Of a DNA stretch of 55,955 bases, positions 18,797 through 48,242 are shown in pieces. A model generated the notes under the pieces. It made no database searches, was not told where the DNA came from, and saw only the letters and a list, made by a program, of their open reading frames with translations. Source of the stretch: Bdellovibrionales bacterium (GTDB lineage Bacteria; Bdellovibrionota; UBA1018; CAIMNF01); assembly GCA_040380025.1 (NCBI GenBank), contig JBEIJY010000014.1, positions 1 to 55,955 of the forward strand, written 5' to 3'. The position numbers and the translations under genes were made by a program. How positions within the stretch are numbered: position 1 is the first letter of the stretch; every line of letters starts with the position of its first letter.

Positions 18797-20251
18797 ATGA
18801 GCGACACAAAAGGGAACATCATCATCATCGACGACGACCGCGAAATGCGGGTGCTGGTTTCGGATTTCTTCCGGGGGCTCGGATTCCGAACGCACATCTT
18901 CGGGCTTGCCAAAGAGGCGCTCGATGCCGTCTCGCCGGGCGGGGCCCTGGCCGAGTCCGGTTCTGAGGGAGACATTGACGTCGTGATCTCGGACATCCGG
19001 ATGCCCGAGATGGACGGAATCCAGCTGACGGAACTCCTGCGCGAGAAACGACCCGAGATCCCGGTGGTGCTGATCACCGCTTTCGGAAGCGTGGAAACCG
19101 CAATCGAAGCAATGCACAAGGGCGCCTACCATTATGTTGTGAAGCCCTTCAAGCTGACCGAGCTCGAGGCAACGGTGATCAAGGCCCTAGAGTTCCGGGC
19201 TCTTCAAAAGGACAATACGGCCCTTCGCGCTGAGGTCCGGAAAGGCTGGAACTTCGGGAACGTGATTGGCAAAAGCGACAGCATGAAGCGCATTTATGAT
19301 CTCGTGTCGCGGATCGCCGGTGCGAATTCGAACGTGCTGATCACCGGCGAAAGCGGTACCGGAAAGGAAATGATCGCGAAGGCGATCCATGAGAGCGGAC
19401 CGCGGGCGAACAAACCGTTCGTGGCGATCAACTGTACGGCAATTCCCGAGAACCTGCTCGAGTCTGAACTGTTCGGACACGCGAAGGGCTCGTTCACGGG
19501 TGCGATTCAACGAAAGCGCGGGCTTTTCGAGGAGGCAAACGGCGGTACGATCTTTCTGGACGAGATCGGGGACATGAATGTGCTCTTGCAATCGAAACTG
19601 CTCCGGGTGATTCAGGAGCGGAAAATCCGCGCTGTGGGGGAAAACATTCCGATCGATGTGAACGTGCGGGTGATTGCGGCCACGCACAAGGATCTCCGGA
19701 CTGCCATGAAAGAGGGGCGCTTCCGCGATGACCTGTATTATCGTCTGAGTGTGATTCCGATCCAGATTCCCCCGCTCCGGCATCGGAAGGAGGACATTCC
19801 TCTTCTTGCCGAGCATTTTCTCAAAAAATATTCTGCCTTGAACCAGATGAAGGTAAAGGGCTTCACCAAGCGGGCCATTGCGAAGCTGATCGGAATGAAG
19901 TGGGAAGGAAACGTGCGCGAGCTCGAGAATGTGGTCGAGCGCGCAATCGTTCTTTGTTCGCAAACGCTCGTGGATGAGAATGACATTCCCACTCCCGAAG
20001 CCCAGACACCGGATGAGTTTTTCGGCGAGTCGACCTCGGATTATCCGACACTCACCACGCTCGAAGAGCGATACATTCGCCTGATTCTCGAGAAGACCGG
20101 CGGACGCAAGGACAAGGCATCGCAGATTCTCGGCATCAACCGCAGGACCTTGTATCGAAAAGAGCGGGAATACGGCATGGTTCCGCTTTCCACCCCCGAA
20201 CCTGATGAATTGGGCGAAGAGGACCTGAGCGAGAACATGATGGATGTTTGA
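18797..20251 (+). CDS. sigma54-dependent response regulator (NtrC/AtoC-type enhancer-binding protein)
   Basis: REC (IIDDD, SDIRMP); GESGTGKE, ESELFGH, GSFTGA loop, FLDEIG; Fis-type HTH ASQILGINRRTLYRK. Confidence 0.95.
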   Translation: MSDTKGNIIIIDDDREMRVLVSDFFRGLGFRTHIFGLAKEALDAVSPGGALAESGSEGDIDVVISDIRMPEMDGIQLTELLREKRPEIPVVLITAFGSVETAIEAMHKGAYHYVVKPFKLTELEATVIKALEFRALQKDNTALRAEVRKGWNFGNVIGKSDSMKRIYDLVSRIAGANSNVLITGESGTGKEMIAKAIHESGPRANKPFVAINCTAIPENLLESELFGHAKGSFTGAIQRKRGLFEEANGGTIFLDEIGDMNVLLQSKLLRVIQERKIRAVGENIPIDVNVRVIAATHKDLRTAMKEGRFRDDLYYRLSVIPIQIPPLRHRKEDIPLLAEHFLKKYSALNQMKVKGFTKRAIAKLIGMKWEGNVRELENVVERAIVLCSQTLVDENDIPTPEAQTPDEFFGESTSDYPTLTTLEERYIRLILEKTGGRKDKASQILGINRRTLYRKEREYGMVPLSTPEPDELGEEDLSENMMDV

Positions 20252-20384
20252 GGAGAGAGGAAGCGGATGAATCCCGCCGGCCGGGGAAAGGCTTAAACTT
20301 GCCCGTCCTCCGGCCGGTACCCATCCGGATCAAAAGCTTTGCAAGCGGGGTGCCAAAGGAAACGGTGCGTGCAACAAAACCGAA

Positions 20385-20400
20385 TGGCACCGGCCTTGCT
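20385..20400 (+). promoter_or_regulatory. sigma54 (-24/-12) promoter
   Basis: TGGCAC-CGGCC-TTGCT, exact consensus; ATG 20414 lies 15 nt after the -12 C. Confidence 0.8.
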
Positions 20401-20413
20401 TCGATGAGAGTCG

Positions 20414-20788
20414 ATGAAGTCGAAAAAATACGTGATTTTGGCTCTTTTTTTCGCTCTCGTGATCTCGGGCGGAATCGCCCTCTCCCTGACCGGGGAACCG
20501 CCGCGGGAACCCGTACTCCCGCAGGGGACAATTGTGGAACACAAGGGGCGGAAATATCGCATCGAAACCGACGAGAACCTGCACCGGGTCCGCGTGTTTT
20601 ATGATCTCGATCAAAAACCCTATCCGACCGGGATTGTTCTTTTGCTGAAGCGAAAGGACCAGCCTTCCCGGAGAATCAAGCTCGGGCTCACCGAAACCAC
20701 TCGGGAATCGGTGGTCTACTCGGGCCTTGTGCCTTCGAATGTGTTGATCTCGGGCGGGGTGAGCTTTCAGATCAAAGAGACCAGATGA
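20414..20788 (+). CDS. Small hypothetical exported/membrane-anchored protein (124 aa)
   Basis: Basic N-terminus and hydrophobic stretch, then a beta-rich domain; directly follows the sigma54 promoter. Confidence 0.65.
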   Translation: MKSKKYVILALFFALVISGGIALSLTGEPPREPVLPQGTIVEHKGRKYRIETDENLHRVRVFYDLDQKPYPTGIVLLLKRKDQPSRRIKLGLTETTRESVVYSGLVPSNVLISGGVSFQIKETR

Positions 20789-20827
20789 ATCCTGAGTGAT
20801 TGAGCGGAATCGGAAAATGAAATCCGG

Positions 20828-22516
20828 TCACCATCGTTTTTCGACGAGGCCTGTGCTCAGTTTTTTCAGGTAGGTGGTGGACTTCAGCGCCGGGGGCGGA
20901 AGCTCCGGCACCGGGGACGAAACCGGCTCCCGAAGCCAGCGCGAGGCAAGCTGATCGAACAAGCGCAGATACCCGAGCAAGGTATACCGGCCAAAGTGGG
21001 TGCACGCCCCCTCGTAGGCCTGTGCCTCGTACTCCTGTTCGGTGGTCACATAGCCTGCGTAGGAGTTCGCATAACCCGAGATCACCACGCGCGTGACCCC
21101 AAGCGGCTGTAATCTCGACTGCAGAAGGGAGCGGAGCCGCGCACCCGATTGAGTGGTGAACTCACCCGGTACGGCTGCAAACGCAACAGAACCGATCCGG
21201 AACAACTGGACCGGAATCACGGTCGGAGTCATGGGTTCACCCTTGAAGACCCGGATTCGGGACCAGAACCGGATGATCCGGATCGTCGGATCGATCAGTC
21301 CGGGAATCGGGAGATCCTCGGGTGTGGAATCTCCGAACACGCGCCCCTCGGTGAGATCAATACAGATGATTTTGCTTCCGTGTGCCCGCGTGCGGATTCG
21401 TCGTCCCTTCAAGAAATACGCGATCTGGAGGCCGATCTCGAGCGCCTTCACCATGAGCCATGAAGCACCCCGGCCCTCGGCCGTTCCTTCCATGAAGGGG
21501 CATCCGAGGGCGGCCTTCCCGGTGGTGATTCCGGTCTGTCCCCCCACCCATTCGGGCGGAATGGGAATGGCCGTGCAGTCATGATGGCGAAGAATCGAGC
21601 CGAGCTCATCTCCCGGCATGCGCTTAGACTCTTCGTAGATCCGAAGGGCATGGCGCGCCTGGATCTCGCCATTGAAGTCACAGCTCTTCAGATCGTCGCG
21701 GAAGGCGCCGCGGACCTCGGGCTTGAACCAGTATTTTTTGAAATTCGGGCTCACATCGCCCGAGGCTCCTTGAGCGAAGAGAACCACCGTATCGGCATCG
21801 AGCGACTTGAAGTGCGTCTCGAGGCGGAGGGAGGCCACTCCCTTGTTGTCGGGGTGAACCGCGAAGAAATCGCGATGCACGCTCGTGCAATGAACCGCAA
21901 ACCAGCTGATCAGCGCGATTGGGACGCCCTCGGCGTCCTGCACTCCGAGCACGTCCATCACCCGGTACAAGGCGCGATTCCGCTCCCGTTCCGAGACCTT
22001 CGGCACATCAGGATTCCGGTTCCACGAGGCGACCGAACGATTGAAGGCGACATTCTCTTCGAGCGGAATCTCGCCCGATCCGAACACCAGATGCGCGGGA
22101 ACGCGCGCGCGCCAGGCACCAAGAATCGAGTCGACGATTCCGTTCACATAGGTCTCGTAAATGGCGGGATGATAGCCCCGACTCGGAATATTGTAGAGAA
22201 TCGAATGACAGTACCCGCCGGGCGCGTTGTGGGTGTGAGTGGCGGTCAGGACCACCTCGTGCTCCTGAAACGCCAGATCCGCCGCGCGATCCTGAAGGCG
22301 CTTCATGACCCCGCGACGGATCGACTCTGAAATGAAGCAGATTTCGACACTCACAAAAATGAGCCTTGCGCCCGCATCATTCTCAAACGCGACCGCGCGC
22401 GAGTGGATCTCCGTCTCGACCCGCGTGGCCCAATGCTTCGGATCTCCCCAGCCCAGAAGAGGGATGGATATCTTGATTTCAGGAGTGATTCGCACTCGTG
22501 AGGCGCCTGATCTCAT
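20828..22516 (-). CDS. Neutral/alkaline non-lysosomal ceramidase (no signal peptide; apparently lacks the C-terminal Ig-like domain)
   Basis: THTHNAPGGY zinc motif, FAVHCTS, family signature GDVSPN, PGEFTTQSG, YEGACTHFG. Confidence 0.9.
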   Translation of the reverse strand: MRSGASRVRITPEIKISIPLLGWGDPKHWATRVETEIHSRAVAFENDAGARLIFVSVEICFISESIRRGVMKRLQDRAADLAFQEHEVVLTATHTHNAPGGYCHSILYNIPSRGYHPAIYETYVNGIVDSILGAWRARVPAHLVFGSGEIPLEENVAFNRSVASWNRNPDVPKVSERERNRALYRVMDVLGVQDAEGVPIALISWFAVHCTSVHRDFFAVHPDNKGVASLRLETHFKSLDADTVVLFAQGASGDVSPNFKKYWFKPEVRGAFRDDLKSCDFNGEIQARHALRIYEESKRMPGDELGSILRHHDCTAIPIPPEWVGGQTGITTGKAALGCPFMEGTAEGRGASWLMVKALEIGLQIAYFLKGRRIRTRAHGSKIICIDLTEGRVFGDSTPEDLPIPGLIDPTIRIIRFWSRIRVFKGEPMTPTVIPVQLFRIGSVAFAAVPGEFTTQSGARLRSLLQSRLQPLGVTRVVISGYANSYAGYVTTEQEYEAQAYEGACTHFGRYTLLGYLRLFDQLASRWLREPVSSPVPELPPPALKSTTYLKKLSTGLVEKRW

Positions 22517-22517
22517 G

Positions 22518-24029
22518 TCACACCCGATACAGAACTTCGATGGTTTTCTTCAGCAGATCCGCCACCAATCCCCGAAACGGCAGACTCGAGGCCATTCCGT
22601 ACACCGGCGCCATTCCCGTGCCTCGTGAGGGATTCGTCTTGACCGCGTGGACGCTTTCTTTCAGATCTTCCAGAAATCGCTCCACCACTCCGACCTTGGT
22701 GTGCCGGAGCGTCACCGCAAGATGCACGCACTCGGGCCGATGCAAGCCGTTCAGGCTCCATCCCTTCGCGGTCATCTGGTCCATGACCTCATAGATGTTG
22801 ACCGATTCCGAGCCGAAAGCCAGGACCCAAAGGGGGTTTCCGAGAATCTTCAGCTCCGGAATCGTCGCGATTCCCTCTTTCAGTTTCTTTGCCGCATCCA
22901 GAATCGCCCGCGTCGCATCGAGGTACCCGGCCTCCCCGATCGAAAGCAGTGAGGCCCAGCATGCGGCGCTGAGCGCGCCCGGCCGCGAGCCCGAAAGCGT
23001 CGGAGAGAAATACAAACCTCCCGGCCAATCGGTGATCGTGAAGAACTGTTCGCGCCTGAGCTCCGGGTTTCGGTACAAAACGACCGAGGTGCCTTTGGCG
23101 GAGTACCCGTACTTGTGGGTGTCGACCGACATCGAGGTCACCCCGCGGAGCCTGAAATCAAAGGCCGGAATTCTTTCGCCGAGCTTTTCGGCGAATGGGA
23201 GCACAAAGCCCCCGAGACAGGCATCGGTATGAAAACCGATTCCGCGCGCGTAGGCGATCTCAGAAAGCTCCTCAATCGGGTCGATTCCTCCGTGAGGGAA
23301 TGCCGGCGCCGAACCCACAATCGCAACCGTCCGGCGATTCACCGCACTGGCCACCGCCCCGGGATCGACCGTGAAGTCCCCTCGCACCGGCACATGCACG
23401 AGCTTCATGTTGAAGTACCCCGCGGCCTTATCGAACGCCGCATGAGCGGTCACAGGAGCGATGATTTCGGGGTTTTTCACGCCCCGGAGGCGCCGTGCAC
23501 GATCGCGATACACCTTCATGGCAAGAAGAATGCTCTCGGTTCCGCCCGAGGTGACGGTACCGCAGACGTCCGGAGCGCTCTCCCCGCGTCCCAGAAGATT
23601 CGCAACCATCGAGACAATCTCGGCCTCGAACTTCGTCGCACTCGGAAACAAATCGCTGTGCAGGGGATTGCTCTGCGAATGGAGGGCGTAGACCTCATTC
23701 AAGAATGCAATGTGAGAGGCGTCTCCGTGGTAGATCCCGCCCGAAACAAACCCATCGCGCCACTTCGGCGACTCGAGGTCGCTCATGGAGCGAATTTCAG
23801 AGAGGAGTCTTTCTTTCGGGATTCCACTTCTGGGAAGAGCATCATGCCGCTCGAACCGTCCGTGATAGGGCTTCAGGGAGTGCTCAAGCGACTCGGTCAG
23901 CTTCCGGTCTTCTTCTTCGATTTTTGCCCGAAACCGCGGATCCTGCCGGATCCGGTTCTCGAGCAGAGAGAGCATCGATTTCGGCAAGAGGCGGATGATC
24001 CATTGGTATTTCGCAAGTTCCTTTTCCAT
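22518..24029 (-). CDS. Sphingosine-1-phosphate lyase-like PLP enzyme (group II decarboxylase fold)
   Basis: [42 protein letters not shown]-lysine motif [18 protein letters not shown]. Confidence 0.88.
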
Positions 24030-24030
24030 T

Positions 24031-25608
24031 TCAGCTCCCCGCGTTTTGTTCCCGGAACCACGATTCATTCCGCTTCAGATAATCCAGATAGGCGCCGAAT
24101 TTGCGTTCATAAACCGCCTGATCGGCCCCGGGTTCGAACACCCGGGCGACTTCGATCCGCGATCCGATCTCTTCCATCGACATCTCGCCCGTTGCCACTA
24201 GAGCCAGTGCGGCCGCGCCTTTCGAGTTCGCGGTTAGGGGATCCTTCATCTGTTCGATCGGGATTCCGAGCGTATCGGCAAGGATGCGACCCCAAACCGA
24301 CGAGCGAGCGCCTCCCCCGATGAAGCGAATCGACTCGAAGTCCCGGCCGCAAAACGATTCGGTGTGTTCCTTCAGCCAGCGAAGATTCAGCGCGACGCCT
24401 TCCATCACGGCACGAATCAGGTGCTTCTGCTCGTGACGCAGGGACAGATTCACAAAGCCACCCCGAAGATGCGAGGCATCCGAGGGAGAGCGTTCTCCGT
24501 TCAGCCAGGGGAAATAATATAACCCCTCCGAACCCGCGGGCACTGTCTCGGCCAGAGCATCCATGCGCGAATACGCATCCTCGGGCGCACGCTCGCGGGA
24601 AACGCCGTTTGCTGGGAACAAAATCCGGTTCTTCAAGAACTGCAACGATGCCCCTGCCGTTTGTTGCTCGTTCACCATGAGGTAACGCCCCGGGATCCCC
24701 GATGGAATGCTTGCGATATTATGAAACAAATCAGCCTTTTTGAAGGGCACATGACAGATGATCCACGCCGAGGTTCCGATATACAGATGCGGGTCGAAAT
24801 CGCGCACTCCTCCCGAACCTACGGCGCCCGAGTGAAGATCGGGCGTCCCCGAGACTACGACGGCATCGGCGGGGATTCCGAATCGGGAGGCGACCTCGGC
24901 ACGCACGGTTCCCAGAATGGAATTCACAGGCACAAGCTCGGGGAGTTTTTCGGGGTCGATTCCGCTCTTTGAGATCAATTCGGTAGAGTATCGGATATTT
25001 CCGATCTCACGATTGTCGGTGAGCCAGTGCAGGGTGATCGAATCGAACGAAGCAGCCGCGCGGCCGGTCAGATGAAAATTCAGATAATCCTTCGGTTCGA
25101 GGAACACCGAGGTTTTTTCGTAAATCGCGGGACGCTCGCGCTTCAAAAAAAGAATATGCGAAATGGGGTCTTTTCCGGAGCGGGTCGGAGCCCCACCCGT
25201 GATGCGAATCCACTGAAGGGTCGGAATCAGTCCGTATCCATCGACTTTGATCAGCCCGTCCGTGAGTCGAGCGGCGTCGGGGGCCCCGCGGGAATCCATC
25301 CAGTTGATCGCGTTCATGAGCGGCTCGCCCGAGCGCGAGAGGGCCACCGTTCCCGACCACTGCGAGGTCACGTTCATGACTTTCACCCGAGCCAGAGCAT
25401 CGCGGTGGTCGCAGGCGATGGCATCGATTGCGGCCTCGATGCCGAGAATCCAGTCGGAGGGCCTTTGCTCGACTCCGCGCTCTCCGTCGAACACCAGCGG
25501 CACTTCCCGGAACGCGGAGGCGATCAGGCGAAGCTCAAAATCAAAGACCGAGACCTTCGGCCCGGAGGTTCCGAGGTCGATGATAAGAACAGTGGGCGGC
25601 GCGACCAT
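24031..25608 (-). CDS. FGGY-family carbohydrate/polyol kinase (xylulokinase-like)
   Basis: [53 protein letters not shown]. Confidence 0.9.
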
Positions 25609-25614
25609 ACGAAA

Positions 25615-25623
25615 AGAGTAGCA
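25615..25623 (-). promoter_or_regulatory. Extended -10 promoter giving a leaderless kinase-lyase-ceramidase transcript
   Basis: Minus strand TGcTACTCT, then 6 nt to ATG 25608; no Shine-Dalgarno. Confidence 0.55.
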
Positions 25624-25652
25624 CCGTTCCCTTGATGACTAAGTGCAACAAT

Positions 25653-26615
25653 TTACTTCCGGTCGTCTTTGCCCGAAGAAGACGAGCCAAAGAAGCTGTC
25701 GCGTGCGGTGAGCGCCACCAGATCGCGCACGCTTTTGTTCATGCCGTCCACGGAGCCGTCCAAAAAGAAGAGGTTTCCTTTGGAATTCTCGGTGATCTGC
25801 TTCAGGGACTCGGTCCACATGCTGAACAAAATAAAGGAAGAATCGAGGTTCGACCGCACCAGCTCGCCGGCCGCCGCACTCATTCCTTTCGCCACTTCTT
25901 CCCGGAACCTCGCCACCGCCTGCCCGCGAAGCACCGCCGCGTTCATCTCGGCCTCGGCCTGGATCCGGATGGCGTTCCCCTCGGCCTCAGCCGCCTTGGT
26001 CTTCGTGATCAGCAAGGCCTGGCCCTCGTTCTCGGCGGCCGCCTTCATGTTGTTCGCGGCCACGACCTTGCTCATACTTTTCATGACTTCTTCGTCAAAC
26101 GTCACGTCGTTCACCTGAAGATCGATCAGATGATACCCCCACTCGGCCAGATGATGGTCCATGTTGTCTTTCACGGCGTTCGTGATCTCACTTCGAAGCG
26201 AGAGAATCTCGGATTGTCTCTTCGTCGCGACGAACGAGCGGATGCTTCCCTCGACGCTTCTTGCAAGAGTCTGCATGAAGCTCCGGTAATCCATGAACTT
26301 GAAGGCGACATTCTTGATCGTCTCTTCTTCGGAATTCATGACCGAGTAGAGCAACATGGCCTTGAAGTGCACATTGGCCTGATCCATCGTCACGGCCTGG
26401 AACTGGAGCTCCACCGATTGATTCTGGAGGGAGATCCGCGAGAACACCTGCTCGATGACGGGAATCTTGAAGTTCAGCCCCGCTCGAAGGGTGCGGGAGT
26501 ATTTTCCGAACAGGGTCAGGACCACGACCGTGCCCTGCTGGACCGTCACGATTCCGCTCAGAAGAATGATGATGAAAACAACGACCAGAAAAAAGAACCA
26601 AAGAGAGAATTCCAT
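25653..26615 (-). CDS. SPFH/band 7 domain membrane protein
   Basis: N-terminal TM; FGKYSRTLRAGLNFKIPVIE; C-terminal AEAEG coiled-coil repeats. Confidence 0.9.
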   Translation of the reverse strand: MEFSLWFFFLVVVFIIILLSGIVTVQQGTVVVLTLFGKYSRTLRAGLNFKIPVIEQVFSRISLQNQSVELQFQAVTMDQANVHFKAMLLYSVMNSEEETIKNVAFKFMDYRSFMQTLARSVEGSIRSFVATKRQSEILSLRSEITNAVKDNMDHHLAEWGYHLIDLQVNDVTFDEEVMKSMSKVVAANNMKAAAENEGQALLITKTKAAEAEGNAIRIQAEAEMNAAVLRGQAVARFREEVAKGMSAAAGELVRSNLDSSFILFSMWTESLKQITENSKGNLFFLDGSVDGMNKSVRDLVALTARDSFFGSSSSGKDDRK

Positions 26616-26672
26616 GGGTACCGGTCTTAGCACAATTTCAGATCCTTAAGTAGATTCTGAAAGAATCCGATC

Positions 26673-27422
26673 TCACAATCCATCGGGCAAAACGGCGACC
26701 ACGAAGAACACGACTCCAGAAGAGGAATCCTGACGGATTTCAAAGTGAATGTCGGCCTGTTTGAGCCGGAAGGCAAATCGCTTCCCCTCGCTTGCGGGAT
26801 CGCCGGCCGGATGCCGTTCCCGCTGGGAGCGCGGCCGGGGGTCCCATGCGAGCGTTTCTTCGATCAACTCCTGAAGATTGAGCTCGCGCGCTTTTTGGAG
26901 CGGCTCTTCGAGGAATCGGACCGCATATCGGGGAATTTCTCCCTCCACCCAACCGCTCCGCGCCTCCGGAACTGAATCCGCATAAGCGACATAAGGCTTC
27001 ACATCGAGAACCGGGGATCCATCCAAAATATCGAGCCCGCTCACCCGCAATTCCGCCTGTCCGGCTTCGTTCCAACAAATTCGATCGAGTCGCACCACCG
27101 AAAGCCCGATGGGATTCGGCCGGTGCGGCGACCGCGAGGCGAACACACCGACTCGCGGCGGAGCCTCGAGCCGCGGAGGGATTATCGTATTGGACCATTT
27201 TTTGGGATGATTCGGATTCTGGGCCTTGTGAAACACATACACGACCCAGAGATGACTGAACCCCGAAAGATGCAAGAAGGCATCCGGATGCGAGAATTCG
27301 CGCTCCAAGCGAATCACCCCGCGCGCGGCTGAGGTCATGAGCGATTGCCGGGGAACCCCGAACTTCTCTTCAAAACAGCTCTCGACCGAACCGATGGGCG
27401 TCAAATTCCAATCCCTTGCCAT
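26673..27422 (-). CDS. trmO: tRNA (N6-threonylcarbamoyladenosine37-N6)-methyltransferase TrmO/TsaA
   Basis: KFGVPRQS, GFSHLWVVYVFH, GVFASRSPHRPNPIGLS, DGSPVLDVKPY, DPRP. Confidence 0.9.
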   Translation of the reverse strand: MARDWNLTPIGSVESCFEEKFGVPRQSLMTSAARGVIRLEREFSHPDAFLHLSGFSHLWVVYVFHKAQNPNHPKKWSNTIIPPRLEAPPRVGVFASRSPHRPNPIGLSVVRLDRICWNEAGQAELRVSGLDILDGSPVLDVKPYVAYADSVPEARSGWVEGEIPRYAVRFLEEPLQKARELNLQELIEETLAWDPRPRSQRERHPAGDPASEGKRFAFRLKQADIHFEIRQDSSSGVVFFVVAVLPDGL

Positions 27423-27500
27423 TACCCGACAGGGGTAGACGAAAATCCAACGAAACGCACGATGAAAATCAACTCCAGTTCATTTGATTTCGCCCGCCTC

Positions 27501-27530
27501 CCCTTGACGCGAGCATCTGGAATCCCATTT
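27501..27530 (+). promoter_or_regulatory. Possible sigma32-like heat-shock promoter of the HtrA gene
   Basis: CCCTTGAC-N14-TCCCATTT resembles CCCTTGAA-N13-15-CCCCATNT. Confidence 0.4.
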
Positions 27531-27558
27531 AAAAATCATGATAGAATCCAAAACCGTG

Positions 27559-29043
27559 ATGAACCGAACTCTGCTCCGATCTTTCTGTTCTGGTGTTTTG
27601 TTCCTTGCCCTTGCCCATCCCGTCTCCGCCCAGGTTGCCGATCGCGGGTTCGCCGATCTCGCAAAAAAAGTGAGCCCGGGCGTGGTGAACATTTCGACGT
27701 TTGCGCGACCGCGCCTGCAGCGTCCCGGTCCTCCGGGCGGGTTCCCGGGGCTGTTCGAGGAATTCTTCGGCGGAAGGCTCCCGCCCCAGTGGCGTGAGGA
27801 ACCCCTTCCTCCCCCTTCAAAGAAATCAAAACCCCTTCCTTATTCGCTTGGCACGGGTTTCGTGATCGATGAATCCGGATTCATTCTGACCAATTACCAT
27901 GTGATTCAAGGCGCAGAAGAAGTGAAAATCCAGTTCGATGAAGACGAGGAATCGGTTCCGGCCGAAATTGTCGGACGCGACCCCGAGCTCGACGTCGCTC
28001 TGCTCTCGGTCAAGACCAAAGAAAAAACGATCGCGCTTCCGCTCGGAGACTCGGACCGGATCGAAGTGGGCGAACCGGTGCTCGCGATCGGAAACCCCTT
28101 GGGATACGGCCACAGCGTGACCCACGGAATCCTCTCGGCCAAGGAGCGAAAGGCGCCTGAGATGCGGCTTGCGAAATATCTCCAGACTGACGCGTCGATC
28201 AATCCCGGCAACAGTGGCGGTCCCCTGATCAACATGAAGGGCGAGGTGATCGGCATCAACAACGCCATCGATGCCCGCGGACAAGGAATCGGATTTGCGA
28301 TTCCGATCAATTCCGTGAAGCAGATTCTTGGACAACTGAAGAGCAAGGGCAGCGTCTCCCGCGGCTACCTCGGGGTCAGCGTCGGGGAAGTCACCCCTGA
28401 TCTGGCCGAACAACTGAAGCTCCCGAAGGGAACCAAGGGAGTCCTCATCGCAGAGGTGCTCCCCGGCCAAGCGGCGGCCAAGGCGGGGATCCTTCCGTAT
28501 GACGTGATCACCTCGGTGAATCGCGAGAAGGTTTCGAGCCCGATCGACCTTACCACCCGGATCACGGCGATCCCGGTAGGAGAAGCCGCAGAACTTGTCT
28601 TGATCCGGAAAGGCGAAGAGAAAAAGATCTCCCTGAAAGTCGGAGAGCGTCCGGTGGAATCATTTGCCGGGGGCCCGAAAAAAGAATCTCCGAAAGGAAG
28701 CAAGGACAATAAGAAGATTGAGAGCGCGTTCGCCGTCTGGGGCTTTGAATGCGTCGAGCGAAGCGAGGCCAATGCGAAGGAATTCGGGCTCCCGCTCAAA
28801 GAAGTCGAATCCTCTTCGGGGGTGATCCTCTCGGATCTCGCTTACGGCAAGCCCGCCGCCGAATCCGGGCTTGCCCGCGGCGATTTGATCATCGACATCG
28901 GAGGAATCGAAGTTTCGACCGTGGCCCAAGCCGAAGCGGCAGTCAAAAAAGCAGGAAGCCAATCCCTGATGATGCGAATCCGGCGCTATAATCCGAACGG
29001 CGATTCGGCTGTGATCATCGTGATCCTGAAACCGGGCGCCTGA
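27559..29043 (+). CDS. Do/HtrA (DegP/DegQ) serine protease with two PDZ domains
   Basis: Signal peptide; catalytic triad motifs TNYHV, DVALL, INPGNSGGPL; RGYLGV PDZ entry. Alternative start at 27538. Confidence 0.93.
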   Translation: MNRTLLRSFCSGVLFLALAHPVSAQVADRGFADLAKKVSPGVVNISTFARPRLQRPGPPGGFPGLFEEFFGGRLPPQWREEPLPPPSKKSKPLPYSLGTGFVIDESGFILTNYHVIQGAEEVKIQFDEDEESVPAEIVGRDPELDVALLSVKTKEKTIALPLGDSDRIEVGEPVLAIGNPLGYGHSVTHGILSAKERKAPEMRLAKYLQTDASINPGNSGGPLINMKGEVIGINNAIDARGQGIGFAIPINSVKQILGQLKSKGSVSRGYLGVSVGEVTPDLAEQLKLPKGTKGVLIAEVLPGQAAAKAGILPYDVITSVNREKVSSPIDLTTRITAIPVGEAAELVLIRKGEEKKISLKVGERPVESFAGGPKKESPKGSKDNKKIESAFAVWGFECVERSEANAKEFGLPLKEVESSSGVILSDLAYGKPAAESGLARGDLIIDIGGIEVSTVAQAEAAVKKAGSQSLMMRIRRYNPNGDSAVIIVILKPGA

Positions 29044-30358: not shown

Positions 30359-31033
30359 TCAGCGGCAGAGAACCGAAGGGGCCCCGGAATGATCAGCCGG
30401 ATGGGAGTCCAGCCGCTGATGAAGAGAGAAGAATCCGGCTCCGATCATGGCCACTGCCACCCACTTTCTTGCGCGGGCTCCGAATCGCCGCAAACCATGC
30501 CGCGCGACCACCGGTGCGGCGGTCAGAACCGGCACAGAACCCGCCCAAACCGCGAGAAAGATCAAGACTCCCCAAAGAGCATTTCCCGAACCCATGGCGA
30601 GAATCAGGGCCGTAAGGAGCCATCCACAGGGCAAAAGCGGAGTCAGGAGACCGACTGCGACCGCGCGATGGTTCGGTCCGAGCAAGGCGAGCGTGCGCTC
30701 GTTCAAAAAACAAAGAAACCGCGACCAGACACCGCCCCCCTCGATCGGGCGTCCGCGCCAGAGCAAATGAAGCCCCGAGGCCACAAGAAAAAACGAAAGC
30801 AATATCCCGGCGGCCAGGGAAAGCTCCGGGATTCCATCGGGCGCGGTCACGGCCCCACCGAACCATCCGGCAAGGAATCCGATTGCAAGATACGAAACCA
30901 ATCTTGAGGCCTGATACCGAAACTGAAGCGCGGGAGACGGCCCCACGGCAAGACTGAGGCCCCCGCACATGGCTCCGCAATGCACGCTTCCGGAAAGGGT
31001 CGCAATCAAAACGGCAAGAACCTTAAAGATCAT
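30359..31033 (-). CDS. DsbD_2/TauE-SafE-like membrane protein (cbb3 oxidase copper/heme assembly)
   Basis: GSVHCGAMCGG and LLPCGWL motifs; last gene of the cco cluster. Confidence 0.85.
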   Translation of the reverse strand: MIFKVLAVLIATLSGSVHCGAMCGGLSLAVGPSPALQFRYQASRLVSYLAIGFLAGWFGGAVTAPDGIPELSLAAGILLSFFLVASGLHLLWRGRPIEGGGVWSRFLCFLNERTLALLGPNHRAVAVGLLTPLLPCGWLLTALILAMGSGNALWGVLIFLAVWAGSVPVLTAAPVVARHGLRRFGARARKWVAVAMIGAGFFSLHQRLDSHPADHSGAPSVLCR

Positions 31034-32411
31034 TCGCAGGTCCGATCAGTTTCACGGGAGTCAGGGATCGATCCTCACGGTTCCATCGGGTCAGGAGCTG
31101 AATCTTTCCCTTGCCAGAGCCGGAATCCAAAGCCGACTTCGGGATCTTCACGAACAAATCAAAATCTCTCCGGTCGCCCGATTCCACCGTTCTCCGGACC
31201 GGATCCTCGAATCCGGGAGGAAGAACAAGCTCGATCCCCCGGGCCCGATCCCCCTCTTCGAGCAAAACCTCGGGGGTCAGGGCGTCCCACCCCATATTCG
31301 CCAAATGGACCTTGAAGTGATTCAGCACCAGCTCGGAACCTTCGCGGTCTTTCAGCACCTGATAGGGAATGTCCACCGCGCGCGTCACCTCGATCGAATA
31401 GGCCTCCCGGCCGGCGAGGCGAATGGCCAGGATCGAAAGACTGATCAGCAGAAGCGCCAGATAAACCAAGGGTCTGGCGCGGAGAAACCGGAAGGGTTTT
31501 CCTGCGATCGAAGCAATGCTTGCATACGAGATCAAACCGCGAGGTTTTTTGATCTTGTCCATCACCAGGTCACAAGCATCCACGCATGCCGTGCACGCGA
31601 TGCACTCCATCTGGACCCCGTTCCGGATGTCGATTCCGGTCGGGCACACACTGACACATCGATAACAGTCAATGCAGTCCTGCCGCTCCCGGTGATAATG
31701 AACAAACAAAGAGGAATCATCCATCATCACCGACTGGAAACGCCCGTAGGGGCAGGCAACCAGGCAGAACTGCTCGCGGAACCAGCCAAAATCAAAGAGC
31801 ACCACGCCCGAAAAAAGAAGCACGAGGACAAACGAGCGGGGACTCTCGAAGGGGGAACGGGTCATCATCCCGAATGAGGCTTCACTGCCGACAAAATAAG
31901 CAAGAAAACTGTGACTCAAAACCAGCGCGATCGCGATGAAGGCTCCCCACTTGGCTGATTTTTTCAGGAACTTGCCGATCGTCCACCGCCCCTGGTGGAG
32001 TCTCTTTCGTTCGAGCGCATTTCCCTCCAGCACCCGTTCGACAGCGCGAAACACCCGTTCAATGAAGACCGTTTGCGGACAGGCCCATCCGCACCAGGCC
32101 CGACCGAACCACGCAGTCAGAAGCCCCACTCCGAAAAGAAAAATCAGCGCAAGAAAGACCAGGTTCGGGACCTCGCGAGCAAAAAACAGCTGGCCGAAGA
32201 CTGAAAATCTCCGATTCGCGATGTCGAGGAGCAACAAGGGATGCCCGCCCACCCGAATCCAGGGGATCACAAGATACAGCGCGATCAAGCCCCACTGCAC
32301 CCACTGTCTTCGATTAGTCCATTTGCCACGCACCTCCGCCGGGAAAATCTTGATTCGCTTTCCCTCGGCGGAGGTGGTGGTCAATGCGTCCCGAACGACG
32401 GGTTTCGCCAT
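31023..32411 (-). CDS. ccoG: cbb3 oxidase accessory protein CcoG/FixG
   Basis: GRAWCGWACPQTVF, REQFCLVACPYGRFQ, two 4Fe-4S motifs CIDCYRCVSVCP and CIACTACVDAC. Confidence 0.93.
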   Translation of the reverse strand: MAKPVVRDALTTTSAEGKRIKIFPAEVRGKWTNRRQWVQWGLIALYLVIPWIRVGGHPLLLLDIANRRFSVFGQLFFAREVPNLVFLALIFLFGVGLLTAWFGRAWCGWACPQTVFIERVFRAVERVLEGNALERKRLHQGRWTIGKFLKKSAKWGAFIAIALVLSHSFLAYFVGSEASFGMMTRSPFESPRSFVLVLLFSGVVLFDFGWFREQFCLVACPYGRFQSVMMDDSSLFVHYHRERQDCIDCYRCVSVCPTGIDIRNGVQMECIACTACVDACDLVMDKIKKPRGLISYASIASIAGKPFRFLRARPLVYLALLLISLSILAIRLAGREAYSIEVTRAVDIPYQVLKDREGSELVLNHFKVHLANMGWDALTPEVLLEEGDRARGIELVLPPGFEDPVRRTVESGDRRDFDLFVKIPKSALDSGSGKGKIQLLTRWNREDRSLTPVKLIGPANDL

Positions 32412-32417
32412 AATTTG

Positions 32418-32999
32418 CTACCTTGCTTCCTCACCCTGCGGAGCCTTTGCCACCGCCGGACTCGTTCCTTGCAAAGACTTCACGTGAGCAACCACCCCCA
32501 GAAGATCGTCCTTCGAAAGGAGTCCCTTCCATCCGGGCATGCCCTTGTCGGCAACGCCCCCGGAGATGACCTTGTAGAGATCGCCATAAGAGCCTTTGCC
32601 GTGAATCCAGAATCGATCGGTCAGATTGGGTCCGATCAATCCTCCGCCATCAGCCGCATGACAAGAGGCACAGTTCGTGGCGTAGGTCTTTTTACCGGCA
32701 TCACGGGTGGCCGCAAGCCCTGCGAGCTTTTCGAACTCCTGATCATCCGGGGCAACGCTCGCATTCTTGGACTGAAGCCGGAGGACCTCGGCCATCTCCT
32801 GCCTGAGTCGGGAATCGGAGGACTCGCCTGTGCCCCACTCATAGTAAACATAGTAAAGAACCGCGAAGGCGATTGACAAATAAAAGAACAACTGCCACCA
32901 GAAGGGTGCGCCATTGTCGAGTTCCTGGATTCCGTCATATTCGTGGTCTGCCAGTGGAACATCATATTGGTTTTTTTGTGGGTTTGTTTCCTCACTCAT
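32418..32999 (-). CDS. ccoP: cbb3-type cytochrome c oxidase subunit III (short monoheme form)
   Basis: DHEYDGIQELDN N-terminal motif, one CASCH, GPNLTDRFWIHG, GMPGW. Confidence 0.9.
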   Translation of the reverse strand: MSEETNPQKNQYDVPLADHEYDGIQELDNGAPFWWQLFFYLSIAFAVLYYVYYEWGTGESSDSRLRQEMAEVLRLQSKNASVAPDDQEFEKLAGLAATRDAGKKTYATNCASCHAADGGGLIGPNLTDRFWIHGKGSYGDLYKVISGGVADKGMPGWKGLLSKDDLLGVVAHVKSLQGTSPAVAKAPQGEEAR

Positions 33000-33169
33000 G
33001 TCGATTCTCCTTTTTCTTGAAGAGGAAGCCGGCTCAGTTCGGCATAGACGCTCTGACTCTCCCTCCGGAACACCCAAATCACGGCCCCGAGGAACACCGC
33101 CATGAACAGCATCATGCTCACGACGGGAAGAGCACTCCAATGCAGATGGCTCAGTAATTCGCGGATCAT
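32996..33169 (-). CDS. ccoQ: cbb3-type oxidase small subunit CcoQ (57 aa)
   Basis: Single TM followed by SRLPL; ATGA overlaps on both sides between ccoNO and ccoP. Confidence 0.8.
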   Translation of the reverse strand: MIRELLSHLHWSALPVVSMMLFMAVFLGAVIWVFRRESQSVYAELSRLPLQEKGEST

Positions 33170-35328
33170 TTTCTTGCTCCTTGTCCGAGTTTCTGAAGAT
33201 ACGCAATCAATGCGATGATCTCGTGCTCTTCCTTCGCGTGGGTCACGCCGCCCTCGGCGAGATCCTTCAGGATTCCGGCCGCTTGGGTTTTCGCGTGACC
33301 CGCGGCATCCCGCACCTCTTCGGCGGTGTAGGGCACACCAAGCGTCGCCATGGCAGAGAGGCGCCTCGAAAGGCCGCCGAAATCGACCTTGTCCTTGAAG
33401 AGCCACGAATACGCCGGCATCACCGAACCCGCGACTACTTCCTGCGGATTCAGCATGTGGCGGTAGTGCCAGAGATTCGGATATTTCAGACCTTCCCGCG
33501 CGAGATCCGGTCCGATCCGCTTCGATCCCCACTGGAAGGGATGATCATACATCGAGTCTTCGATCTTCGATGCCGGACCGAATCGGAGCACATCCCCGAC
33601 CGTCTTGCGGATCATCTGGGAATGACAGGTGTAACACCCCTCACGAACATAAATGTCGCGTCCGGCGAGTTCGAGCGGAGTATACGGACGATTCAATTCG
33701 AGATTGTAATTCGACTCCACGAGCCCGTTCGATGCGATCATCGGCGCGAGCGAAATCACCGAACCGATCGAGATTGCCACGACCGAAAGAGCCGCAAGGA
33801 CCATGGGAAGCCCCTCGAGCGTGCGGTGGGAGAATGTCCCCTCGCCCTCGAGTTCGGTCAGAATCGGTTTCGAAACAAACCGCGCGTACCGGTCTTCCGC
33901 GTCTGCAAGAGGAGCCCCTCTGGCGACGCCTATGGTTTTGGCCACGTTGTAGAGCATCACGCAAAACCCTGCGAGATAAACGACTCCTCCGATGGCACGG
34001 ATCACATAAAGCGGAACGATCCGGGTCACCGTCTGAACGAAATCAGGATAGGCGAGCACTCCGTCGGCATTCACTTCGCGCCACATGAGGCCTTGGGTGA
34101 TTCCCGCCGTGTACATCGAGATCACATAAAGCAGGATCCCGATGGTCCCGAGCCAGAAGTGCGTGTTTGCAAGGCGTTTCGAGTACAACTCCCGACCCCA
34201 GAGTTTCGGCACGAGGTAATAAATCATCCCGAACGAGAGAAACCCGTTCCATCCCAGAGCGCCCGCATGGACATGCGCGACGATCCAGTCCGTATAGTGC
34301 CCGAGTTCGTTCACGCTCTTGATCGAAAGAAGCGGTCCCTCAAACGTCGACATTCCATAAAAGGTCATGGCAAGCACCATGAACTTCACCATCGGTTCGG
34401 TACGAAGCTTGTCCCACGCCCCCCTCAGGGTCAGAAGACCATTGATCATCCCGCCCCACGACGGGATCCAAAGCATCACGCTGAACACCATCCCGGTGGT
34501 TTGCGCCCAATCGGGTACCGAGCTGTTCAAAAGATGATGGGGCCCGGCCCAGATGTAAATGAACACGAGAGTCCAGAAGTGGATCACCGACAAACGGTAG
34601 GAATACACCGGCCGGTTCACCGATTTGGGAACAAAGTAATACATGAGCCCCAAGAACGGGGTGGTCAGGAAGAATGCCACCGCATTGTGTCCGTACCACC
34701 ACTGAACGAGCGCGTCACTGACTCCGGCATAGGCGGAATAGCTCTTGAAGAGGCTCACAGGCAGGGCCATTGAGTTTGTCACATGCAAAATGGCAACCGT
34801 GATGAAGGTTGCAATGTAAAACCAGACCGCGACATAAATGTGCTTCACCCTGCGGATCAGGACCGTCCGGAGCAGGTTGTAGCCGAAAGCGAGCCAAACG
34901 ACCGCGATGGCGATGTCGACGGGCCACTCGAGCTCGGCATATTCTTTTCCTTGCGTGATCCCGAAGGGCAACGTGAGAGCCGCCATGACAATGATCGCCT
35001 GCCAGCCCCAAAAATGAAACCGGCTGACCCCGTCGCTGAACATGCGGGTTTTCAGCACTCGCTGGGCTGAATAATAAATACCAGCGAAGATCGCGTTTCC
35101 GGCAAACGCAAAAATCGCGGCGTTCGTATGGAGCGGACGCAGGCGTCCGAAGCCCAAAAACGGAAGATTGAATCCGAGGCCCGGGAATGCCATCTCGAAT
35201 GCAATGTAAATTCCAACCAAAAATGCGACAAAGGCCCACACGAGGGTGGCAAGAGTGAACTTCCGGACGATTTCATCGTCGTACCGGAAGGTCTCCAACG
35301 GACCTGTGTTCAAAGTGTCATCATTCAT
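33166..35328 (-). CDS. ccoN: cbb3-type cytochrome c oxidase fused subunit I/II (CcoN-CcoO)
   Basis: RLRPLHTN, WWYGHNAV, WAGPHHL, HVHAGALGW; C-terminal CcoO domain EGCYTCHSQMIR, WGSKRIGPDLAR. Confidence 0.96.
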   Translation of the reverse strand: MNDDTLNTGPLETFRYDDEIVRKFTLATLVWAFVAFLVGIYIAFEMAFPGLGFNLPFLGFGRLRPLHTNAAIFAFAGNAIFAGIYYSAQRVLKTRMFSDGVSRFHFWGWQAIIVMAALTLPFGITQGKEYAELEWPVDIAIAVVWLAFGYNLLRTVLIRRVKHIYVAVWFYIATFITVAILHVTNSMALPVSLFKSYSAYAGVSDALVQWWYGHNAVAFFLTTPFLGLMYYFVPKSVNRPVYSYRLSVIHFWTLVFIYIWAGPHHLLNSSVPDWAQTTGMVFSVMLWIPSWGGMINGLLTLRGAWDKLRTEPMVKFMVLAMTFYGMSTFEGPLLSIKSVNELGHYTDWIVAHVHAGALGWNGFLSFGMIYYLVPKLWGRELYSKRLANTHFWLGTIGILLYVISMYTAGITQGLMWREVNADGVLAYPDFVQTVTRIVPLYVIRAIGGVVYLAGFCVMLYNVAKTIGVARGAPLADAEDRYARFVSKPILTELEGEGTFSHRTLEGLPMVLAALSVVAISIGSVISLAPMIASNGLVESNYNLELNRPYTPLELAGRDIYVREGCYTCHSQMIRKTVGDVLRFGPASKIEDSMYDHPFQWGSKRIGPDLAREGLKYPNLWHYRHMLNPQEVVAGSVMPAYSWLFKDKVDFGGLSRRLSAMATLGVPYTAEEVRDAAGHAKTQAAGILKDLAEGGVTHAKEEHEIIALIAYLQKLGQGARK

Positions 35329-47193: not shown

Positions 47194-47514
47194 ATGGTCT
47201 CCCTTGCTCTTGTTTTGACCGCCTCACTGCAGTCAGGACTCTACCATTGCGCTGAAAAGCCCGCCCTTTGCGATCAAAGAGTAGAGGTACACCGGATCGC
47301 CGAAGAAATCCGCCTCTTGCGGGTGGAGTATGTCGGAGACTGCGGGAGCATGGGCCCGTACGATTACCCCTGCATGGACGGGGTTTGCTCCGACCGGAAT
47401 GCTGAGTTCACCCTTTCGGGACCACGCTCGTATCACTGGCGGAATCTCGGCTACCCATTTCGATGTGAATTCCTTCTCCAAACCACACCCGAACCAAGAA
47501 GAAGCACCCCATGA
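47194..47514 (+). CDS. Small six-cysteine hypothetical protein, probably exported
   Basis: Short hydrophobic N-terminus, 6 Cys, own promoter, ATGA overlap with the next gene. Confidence 0.6.
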   Translation: MVSLALVLTASLQSGLYHCAEKPALCDQRVEVHRIAEEIRLLRVEYVGDCGSMGPYDYPCMDGVCSDRNAEFTLSGPRSYHWRNLGYPFRCEFLLQTTPEPRRSTP

Positions 47515-48242
47515 ACCGAGACCACATTCCGTCCATCCCTGATCAGAGCAGTCCTTGGTACCGCTTGAGCGAGTGGCGAAAGCCCAATCTGAAGTGGTGC
47601 GAGGCCCAAAACAACTCGTGGATCATGGAACCGGCGAACACCTGGTCGAACCTGGCGTATCTGCTTGCGGGAGCCTTCATCGCCGTCCACAGCAGAAAAT
47701 TCCAATCGAGGGCGATCCGGTCTTATGCCTGGGTCATGATCGCCATGGGTTTGTGCTCGGCGATCTATCATGCCTCGTTCACCTTCGTGTTCCAGATTCT
47801 CGATTTTTTCGGGATGTACCTGATGACCTCGTTGATGATTTTGATTCAACTGCGAAGGCTCGGGTGGATTCGAGAGGCCATGAACCCCGTGAACTTCTGG
47901 TCGCTCGTCGCGGGAACGACGGCGCTCACCGTGTGGTGCGATTTTTACACGGAATTTCCGATCCAGGCCTTCATTCTCGTGCAGACGCTCCTCATCATCG
48001 GCGCAGAGATCCTGATTTACCGGCGATCAAAGCCAAAACCGAACCTGAATTTCTTCGGGGCCGGCGTCGCATTCATGGCGATTGCCATCACCTTCTCGGC
48101 CCTCGATGCGAGCCGCGTCCTCTGCGATCCCGACAACCACTGGATTCAGGGCCACGCCCTCTGGCATGTCTTCAGCTCGATCGGGGTCACGATGATGTAT
48201 CTTCATCATAGCCGCTTTGATCGCGAACTTGTCGCGAAATGA
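47511..48242 (+). CDS. Alkaline ceramidase-like 7-TM hydrolase (CREST superfamily)
   Basis: WCE...EPANTWSN, SAIYH (SxxxH), QILD, GHALWH (HxxxH); about seven TM segments. Confidence 0.8.
   Translation: MNRDHIPSIPDQSSPWYRLSEWRKPNLKWCEAQNNSWIMEPANTWSNLAYLLAGAFIAVHSRKFQSRAIRSYAWVMIAMGLCSAIYHASFTFVFQILDFFGMYLMTSLMILIQLRRLGWIREAMNPVNFWSLVAGTTALTVWCDFYTEFPIQAFILVQTLLIIGAEILIYRRSKPKPNLNFFGAGVAFMAIAITFSALDASRVLCDPDNHWIQGHALWHVFSSIGVTMMYLHHSRFDRELVAK

Follow-up and report, generated by a model that had tools for sequence, protein, structure and literature searches.

Ceramide catabolism runs through a ceramidase, a sphingosine kinase and a sphingosine 1-phosphate (S1P) lyase, in that order, and yields phosphoethanolamine and a fatty aldehyde. 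Recent years have clarified how bacteria make sphingolipids, but bacterial breakdown of these lipids is poorly described. Here we examine a three-gene cluster on contig JBEIJY010000014.1 of a probably predatory Bdellovibrionales bacterium (assembly GCA_040380025.1), a stretch of 55,955 nucleotides (nt) that we refer to as the window. The cluster encodes a kinase of the FGGY family, a pyridoxal phosphate (PLP)-dependent relative of the S1P lyase of Symbiobacterium thermophilum (StSPL), and a short member of the neutral ceramidase family. With moderate confidence, we favor the reading that these genes form a cytoplasmic cassette for ceramide breakdown in which the FGGY enzyme would act as the sphingoid-base kinase.

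The eukaryotic route (ASAH2; SPHK1/2 or yeast Lcb4/Lcb5; SGPL1 or Dpl1) takes the same three steps in the same order, and its ceramidase and lyase are homologous to those of the window. The kinases differ. Known sphingosine kinases have the diacylglycerol (DAG)-kinase fold, and passages of PMC6148460 place sphingosine kinases in the DAG-kinase family, whereas the window kinase is a non-homologous FGGY protein of the actin/hexokinase type. Also unlike the eukaryotic route, the window proteins all appear to be soluble, with no signal or transmembrane segments, and are encoded in one operon.

Among bacterial lyases, StSPL (structures 3MAD, 3MAF and 3MAU) resembles the window enzyme in having no eukaryotic transmembrane helix. 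StSPL was characterized as an isolated enzyme, whereas its ortholog in the window has a fixed kinase partner and, within this genus, a ceramidase. Portions of PMC3148216 report that StSPL breaks down S1P in vitro and in blood, and give its natural role as unknown. The secreted S1P lyases of pathogens (Burkholderia pseudomallei S1PL2021/2025 and Legionella LegS2; 5K1R and 4W8I) belong to the same family and match the window lyase at E values of 6e-117 and 4e-70, respectively. These enzymes use S1P made by the host and need no bacterial kinase, in contrast to the window lyase, which falls in the kinase-linked StSPL group. The word "kinase" is absent from the main text of PMC5234717.

The kinase is best compared with XylB and GlpK (2ITM, 5VM1 and 1GLA), with which it shares a two-domain fold (TM 0.80-0.83), the DxGT loop and an aligned Asp. 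It differs from them in overall sequence (22-25% identity), in two insertions, in altered ligand positions and in having the lyase rather than a xylose isomerase as its genomic partner. The neutral ceramidase of Pseudomonas aeruginosa is an exported protein of about 650 amino acids (aa) with a C-terminal domain. The window ceramidase shares the catalytic domain of the Pseudomonas enzyme (2ZWS), including its aligned His, Arg, Glu and Tyr residues, and differs from it in its length of 562 aa, with no detectable C-terminal domain and no signal-like segment. Full-text literature searches, supplements aside, found no paper linking an FGGY kinase to sphingoid bases. PMC8151288, the one bacterial study found to mention both FGGY and sphingoid terms, regards the FGGY protein it describes as a putative glycerol kinase.

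The three cassette proteins

The genes lie on the minus strand in the order kinase, lyase, ceramidase. As the original prediction stated, they are co-oriented and separated by single bases, both of which we read directly: one base (24030) separates the kinase TGA from the lyase ATG at 24029, also seen in the open reading frame (ORF) listing, and one base (22517) separates the lyase TGA from the ceramidase ATG. A GGGGAG Shine-Dalgarno sequence stands in front of the lyase start. The family calls of that prediction (FGGY kinase, S1P lyase-like PLP enzyme, neutral ceramidase) were upheld by Pfam and by matches to known structures, as detailed below for each protein.

The lyase gene (22518..24029, minus strand) encodes 503 aa with a Pfam Pyridoxal_deC domain and no transmembrane helix. 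In a phmmer search of the PDB, its best-scoring relatives were StSPL (3mad; E 5.7e-191, 639 bits, residues 46-503), human SGPL1 (4q6r; 3e-128, 432 bits) and yeast Dpl1 (3mc6; 7e-119, 401 bits). Amino-acid decarboxylases were far weaker, with MfnA at 111 bits, GAD at 82 bits, and tyrosine and glutamate decarboxylases at E values of 1e-31 to 1e-22. The stretch DTHKYGY, which carries the PLP lysine, aligns with StSPL, and K306 is invariant in nine orthologs. Judged by these alignments, the PLP enzyme is a genuine relative of StSPL-type S1P lyases and not an amino-acid decarboxylase, an alternative that fails because MfnA and GAD score far below StSPL.

The ceramidase gene (20828..22516, minus strand) encodes 562 aa, without a signal peptide, that match Pfam Ceramidase_alk (PF04734) at 307 bits against a gathering score of 32.1, and Pseudomonas neutral ceramidase (2zws) at E 1.3e-65 by phmmer. 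Seven residues of the window protein, H94/H96, an Arg, H209, a Glu and two Tyr, align with H97/H99, R160, H204, E411, Y448 and Y460 of 2zws, and all seven are identical. We take His97, His99, Arg160, His204, Glu411, Tyr448 and Tyr460 of 2zws to be the Zn-binding and catalytic residues. Two observations on other ceramidase-type genes are recorded here. The window holds a second, unrelated gene of this kind about 22 kb from the cassette (47511-48242, plus strand, 243 aa), which belongs to the membrane alkaline ceramidase family PF05875 (ACER/Ypc1-type; 72 bits, cut-off 32.5). In two genomes from elsewhere in the phylum (G075, L151:4573-10308; G248, L153:8419-12484), a distant short ceramidase-like gene (30-33% identity) overlaps a gene for an FAD oxidase of the ALO/alditol-oxidase type, which in the first of these loci is followed by a PLP protein of the Ala_racemase_N fold and by CstA. 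We speculate that a ceramidase-like enzyme and an FAD oxidase might handle the released amino alcohol without a kinase.

The kinase gene (24031..25608, minus strand) encodes 525 aa with both Pfam FGGY domains (FGGY_N, 100.9 bits, cut-off 28.8; FGGY_C, 87.9 bits, cut-off 27) and no DAGK catalytic domain (PF00781). XylB is its best match in both NCBIfam and the PDB, though under the cut-off. The score against the XylB model TIGR01312 is 247.1 bits, below the equivalog cut-off of 380.25, which none of the 93 full-length representatives among the best 150 relatives of the kinase reaches. Every database relative with a name carries the label "xylulokinase" or "FGGY carbohydrate kinase", the nearest of them coming from metagenome-assembled genomes (MAGs) labelled Bdellovibrionales or Bdellovibrionia, and the ESM Atlas returned only FGGY "xylulokinase" clusters. 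The AlphaFold2 (AF2) model (pLDDT 91.7, pTM 0.91) has a two-domain fold of the actin/hexokinase type, which Foldseek aligned at TM 0.80-0.83 with gluconate, xylulose and glycerol kinases (3gbt, 5vm1 and 2itm among them) at 18-25% identity.

No sugar genes were found by Pfam in the operon, and the genome, which is 98% complete, gave no match to xylose isomerase (TIGR02630), a model that five of 14 control genomes match. The earlier statement that no nearby xylose isomerase or sugar transporter backs a xylulokinase role was borne out in the operon and, for xylose isomerase, genome-wide. The kinase also stands apart from XylB in score (247 against 380 bits) and in the FastTree phylogeny described below, where E. 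coli XylB lies outside the lyase-linked clade. Judged by sequence, the enzyme is no XylB.

D11-L-G-T and D257 are invariant in 42 sequences of the kinase clade, and they align with D6 and D233 of XylB and with D11 and D246 of GlpK. We take DxGT to be the N-terminal phosphate loop of FGGY kinases and the conserved Asp to be catalytic. In the alignment, the clade has the motifs Q83-W84-S85-G86-T87, D257-V/L258 and G-T-S-S-W282, at positions where XylB has QMHG, DN and GTSGV and GlpK has QRET, DQ and GTGCF. The GlpK residues at the positions of clade W84-S85, V/L258 and W282 presumably bind glycerol or lie next to the catalytic Asp. The two insertions relative to XylB and GlpK fall at approximately residues 112-131 and 330-345.

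By Kyte-Doolittle analysis, no hydrophobic segment fit for a signal peptide or a membrane span was found in the kinase, lyase or ceramidase. The maximal 19-residue means of the three proteins are 0.98, 1.22 and 1.46, in agreement with the earlier claim that none has an obvious signal peptide.

The kinase-lyase pair across genomes

With the kinase as the starting point, we surveyed 40 genomes of relatives for orthologs of at least 50% identity. Six of the 16 congeners have one, as does a single genome from a different family of the same taxonomic order, and the lyase is the next gene in all seven loci (L002-L008), although in L004 it is partial and runs into the contig end. Scanning one genome per species gave 13 more loci at 46-49% identity, in MAGs labelled Chloroflexota, Bacteroidota, Planctomycetota, Spirochaetota, Pseudomonadota, Armatimonadota and Actinomycetota. 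All but two of these 13 (L013 and L014), or 11 loci, have the lyase immediately after the kinase, and the remaining neighbors vary by locus.

The survey was also run from the lyase. An alignment of nine lyases retrieved 80 metagenome loci, 63 of which had at least 300 nt upstream and could be assessed, and 17 of which had less than 300 nt. A kinase ortholog is present in 55 of the 63 assessable loci, adjacent upstream on the same strand in 51 and 1-4 kb upstream in four, leaving eight without. Where at least 1700 nt of upstream sequence was available (42 loci), the kinase is adjacent on the same strand in 33, lies at 1-4 kb in four and is not seen in five; where 300-1700 nt was available (21 loci), the 3′ part of the kinase is adjacent in 18 and not in three. 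No kinase was seen near the lyase in L053, L075, L079 and L087. ORF clustering over the 80 loci returned the lyase and the kinase as the only recurrent families, any other being found in at most five loci. The kinase followed by the lyase is a conserved two-gene module across phyla, and it is rare for the lyase to lack a kinase partner, which in most cases comes from one FGGY clade. Pairwise identities of the kinases and lyases co-vary (Mantel r 0.84, with none of 999 permutations as high), a correlation that shared ancestry alone could yield.

The genes that occasionally accompany the pair would fit an aldehyde, amide or lipid theme. In L113 (2862-4598) and L114 (3062-4798), a gene for an aldehyde:ferredoxin oxidoreductase lies between the FGGY kinase and the lyase, a position that fits an aldehyde as the lyase product. 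An amidase gene follows the lyase in L060, DUF1295 genes are found in four loci, and acyl-CoA enzymes in L021, L022 and L055.

In a FastTree phylogeny of 158 sequences, 54 of the 55 lyase-adjacent kinases fall in one clade (SH-like support 96), together with the kinase of L004, whose lyase is partial, and five representatives of unknown context. E. coli XylB, GlpK, AraB, LsrK, LyxK and FucK all lie outside it, and the kinases of L013 and L014, which are not lyase-linked, are placed in clades neighboring it. A quick free search with IQ-TREE on a hand-chosen subset of 60 rows instead nested the neighboring groups inside the lyase-linked ones, with weak support. Since the tree constrained to one clade on the same subset had a log-likelihood 6.65 higher than that of the free search (p-AU 0.56), a single lyase-linked clade is not rejected. 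The robust result is that a larger clade, with SH-aLRT 99, is separate from XylB. These trees are compatible with a single lyase-linked kinase clade and do not prove it.

Many congeners, this genome not among them, have a second and shorter SPL-like paralog (about 450 aa, 42-48% identity) that has no link to an FGGY kinase. At two such loci, G016:C11 (L142:7214-8536) and G002:C3 (L143:7159-8514), an APH-family phosphotransferase gene and one for a nucleotidyl transferase are located within 2-3 kb.

Proposed pathway and competing explanations

In the pathway that we propose, the short neutral ceramidase would convert ceramide or dihydroceramide to a free sphingoid base and a fatty acid. The FGGY kinase would then use ATP to phosphorylate the C1 hydroxyl of the sphingoid base, whose 2-amino-1,3-diol head group is polyol-like, and the StSPL-type lyase would split the product between C2 and C3 into phosphoethanolamine and a long-chain aldehyde. 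The aldehyde could be oxidized by aldehyde dehydrogenases encoded elsewhere; the genome has six such genes outside the cassette. The DAGK_cat domain (PF00781) gave no match at E<=0.001 in the genome, and 13 of the 14 control genomes do match. Because no protein of the DAG-kinase fold was found, no candidate other than the FGGY enzyme is in sight for the kinase step. A role as a ceramide kinase was considered for the FGGY enzyme and rejected on chemistry, since the lyase needs a free amine. The PLP mechanism of the lyase demands it.

We infer from sequence what the kinase acts on (a sphingoid base with a long chain, or some other 2-amino-1,3-diol), which way the flux runs and where the lipid comes from. 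The source could be the cell's own lipids or those of prey, the former being possible because the genome encodes a probable serine palmitoyltransferase (SPT). Its single alpha-oxoamine synthase scores 526 bits against the SPT model, compared with 394 for KBL and 390 for BioF. This score and the alkaline-ceramidase-family gene of the window (47511-48242) both favor the ceramide reading. The gene (G000:C6:84243-85505; L141:8244-9509) overlaps an upstream ORF of 170 aa without a family match, is followed by ruvC, ruvA and ruvB, and is conserved in all 16 congeners and in 38 of the 41 genomes searched.

We lean slightly towards a broader proposal, that the FGGY clade now labelled xylulokinase is the missing bacterial sphingoid-base kinase, an independent, non-homologous invention that would explain the natural role of StSPL-type lyases in many phyla and that, in this genus, would be joined to a cytoplasmic ceramidase in a self-contained operon leading from ceramide to phosphoethanolamine. 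Of the loci with the kinase-lyase pair, this one is the most explicit, because the ceramidase names the lipid class. If the proposal is correct, a textbook step would have a new catalytic solution, by non-orthologous displacement of the DAG-kinase-fold enzyme, and the "xylulokinase" label of the clade would be corrected across at least five phyla. In soils, sediments and sludge, the pair would then also mark genetically where sphingolipids are turned over, and the soluble kinase, lyase and ceramidase would form a set for enzymology.

Several observations weigh against a ceramide cassette. The complete three-gene cluster was found only in four genomes of one genus (G000, G002, G004 and G013) and on one metagenome contig (L043, whose lyase is 80% identical), and none of the 92 remaining loci that were examined has a ceramidase in its flanks. 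Two genomes (G003 and G006) have the ceramidase (40-43% identical) on a different contig from the kinase-lyase pair, G038 has the kinase and lyase with no ceramidase found, and the contig of G010 is too short to show whether a ceramidase is linked. In favor of the link, the in-operon ceramidase recurs in G002, G004, G013 and L043, and ceramidase orthologs (E<=1e-100) occur in five of the 16 congeners, all five of which carry the kinase. In a sample of 251 genomes from the phylum, 12 have a ceramidase-like gene (E<=1e-50), four have the kinase (E<=1e-80) and three have both, and on these counts the cassette is rare and accessory in the phylum. The protein itself scores 203 bits against an NCBIfam neutral ceramidase equivalog cut-off of 1200, Pfam detects no C-terminal domain in it, and its alignment with 2zws stops near residue 489 of 646. 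The SPT score of 526 bits is likewise under the NCBIfam cut-off of 640. Among distant genomes with the pair, five (three Chloroflexota, one Bacteroidota MAG and one Gemmataceae) have alpha-oxoamine synthases that score as KBL or BioF and not as SPT, and a strong Ceramidase_alk match occurs in only one of the five (Gemmataceae), unlinked to the pair. Since these carriers have no evident SPT and mostly no ceramidase, the pair in them must use imported sphingoid bases or another amino-diol. The linkage expected by the original prediction is thus conserved for the kinase and lyase, in both survey directions and across many phyla, and is confined for the ceramidase to the genus and L043, with none of the 92 other loci showing it. 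The prediction of a complete ceramide-degradation operon with an FGGY sphingoid-base kinase accordingly stands for the three families, for the separation from XylB and for the kinase-lyase linkage, and does not extend to a ceramidase linkage beyond the genus or to a single promoter.

An alternative that we regard as possible but unlikely gives the kinase-lyase pair a water-soluble 2-amino-1,3-diol as its substrate. This could be an amino-polyol or a short amino alcohol (a reduced amino sugar, for example), and it would be broken down to phosphoethanolamine and a short aldehyde, with the ceramidase-like enzyme freeing the amino alcohol from an N-acyl conjugate. To our knowledge, there is no biochemical evidence for an FGGY enzyme acting on a lipid, the characterized members using small polar substrates, and the model of the window kinase predicts an ordinary FGGY fold. 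The presence of the pair in genomes without an evident SPT or ceramidase would also suit a soluble substrate, as would several variant loci. L090 has a GntR/UTRA regulator, an MFS transporter and the lyase, followed by a different FGGY lineage. Three loci that are missing the FGGY kinase have a DUF4147/MOFRL (glycerate-kinase-type) gene near the lyase, immediately upstream of it in L098 (3392-4756) and L104 (3-1145) and 2.8 kb downstream in L115 (4519-5892); this gene may encode a second, non-homologous kinase partner of the lyase. Class-III aminotransferase genes adjoin the pair in L017, in L108, where the kinase is 4 kb upstream, and in L116, which begins at the contig end and is otherwise like L108. 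Against a soluble amino-diol, the lyase matches an enzyme proven to cleave S1P (StSPL, E 6e-191), a gene of the neutral-ceramidase family is translationally packed with the pair, and sugar isomerase, sugar transporter and amino-sugar genes are not recurrent in the 80 loci. The kinase pocket also bears on this choice, as Trp/Ser and Val/Leu stand at the positions of the polar glycerol ligands of GlpK, and such a set of Trp, Ser and aliphatic side chains would be better matched to a substrate of lower polarity. This is weak evidence, because related kinases without lyase linkage have most of the same substitutions.

It is also conceivable, though we consider it improbable, that the cassette targets a different N-acyl lipid (an N-acyl-serinol, other N-acyl amino alcohols or a sphingolipid analogue specific to the genus) and has as its main role the detoxification or recycling of free long-chain amines in the course of predation. 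The divergent short form of the ceramidase fits this view, as do the accessory distribution of the cassette (six of 16 congeners) next to a core SPT-like gene (16 of 16), and the coupling, elsewhere in the phylum, of short ceramidase-like genes to the FAD alditol-oxidase type and the PLP Ala_racemase_N-fold protein. The metal-binding and catalytic residues of neutral ceramidase, however, all align, and in the parts of PMC6148460 and PMC3148216 that treat the lyase family, sphingoid base phosphates are its sole demonstrated substrates. That the kinase is an ordinary xylulokinase-like sugar kinase whose position next to the lyase is functionally meaningless seems very improbable. The names of its database relatives and its top NCBIfam and PDB matches would point that way, but the score is under the XylB cut-off, xylA was not found in the genome, and the pairing is kept in 55 of the 63 assessable loci from many phyla with variable surroundings. 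The correlated identities of kinase and lyase likewise speak against an ordinary sugar kinase, with the caveat on shared ancestry given above.

Upstream genes and other features of the window

Two genes lie close upstream of the cassette on the same strand. An SPFH/Band-7 gene (25653..26633, minus strand; Pfam Band_7, 109 bits) encodes a predicted membrane-anchored protein, with an N-terminal anchor at a Kyte-Doolittle value of 3.14, and ends 44 nt before the kinase start. Another 39 nt upstream of it is the gene of the tRNA methyltransferase TrmO (26673..27422, minus strand; Pfam TrmO_N and TrmO_C; TIGR00104, 133 bits, above the cut-off), the first gene of the same-strand run that leads into the cassette. 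A promoter and terminator scan of 20200-27700 gave one promoter-like and eight terminator-like sites, which is not above shuffled sequence and makes the scan uninformative on the transcription unit. With the scan at chance level and both genes close upstream on the same strand, the transcription unit may comprise up to five genes (TrmO, SPFH and the three of the cassette), and the earlier description of the cassette as lying behind one promoter was not confirmed. The sequencing runs that contain the stretch, three runs from one study, one of which may have supplied this very DNA, are all recorded as DNA and offer no RNA evidence.

SPFH was considered as a component of the cassette and rejected, as it does not adjoin the kinase in G002, G013 or G010. 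In these genomes the gene immediately before the kinase is TrmO. TrmO is upstream of the kinase in L002, L003 and L004 and is a neighbor kept within the genus, though it is probably unrelated to the cassette in function. The best TrmO homologs of G005 and G012 sit in different surroundings, which leaves no like-for-like insertion site to compare.

Two further features of the window were recorded. A gene at 50513-55117 (plus strand, 1534 aa) encodes AAA_11/AAA_12 helicase domains and, at the C terminus, a REase_MTES_1575 nuclease domain, and is located where the G+C content falls from about 0.57 to 0.50, which may mark a mobile or defense island. On the minus strand, positions 31023-35328 hold a cbb3-type cytochrome oxidase cluster that encodes a 720-aa fusion of COX1 and FixO along with FixP and a Fer4_18 (CcoG-like) protein.

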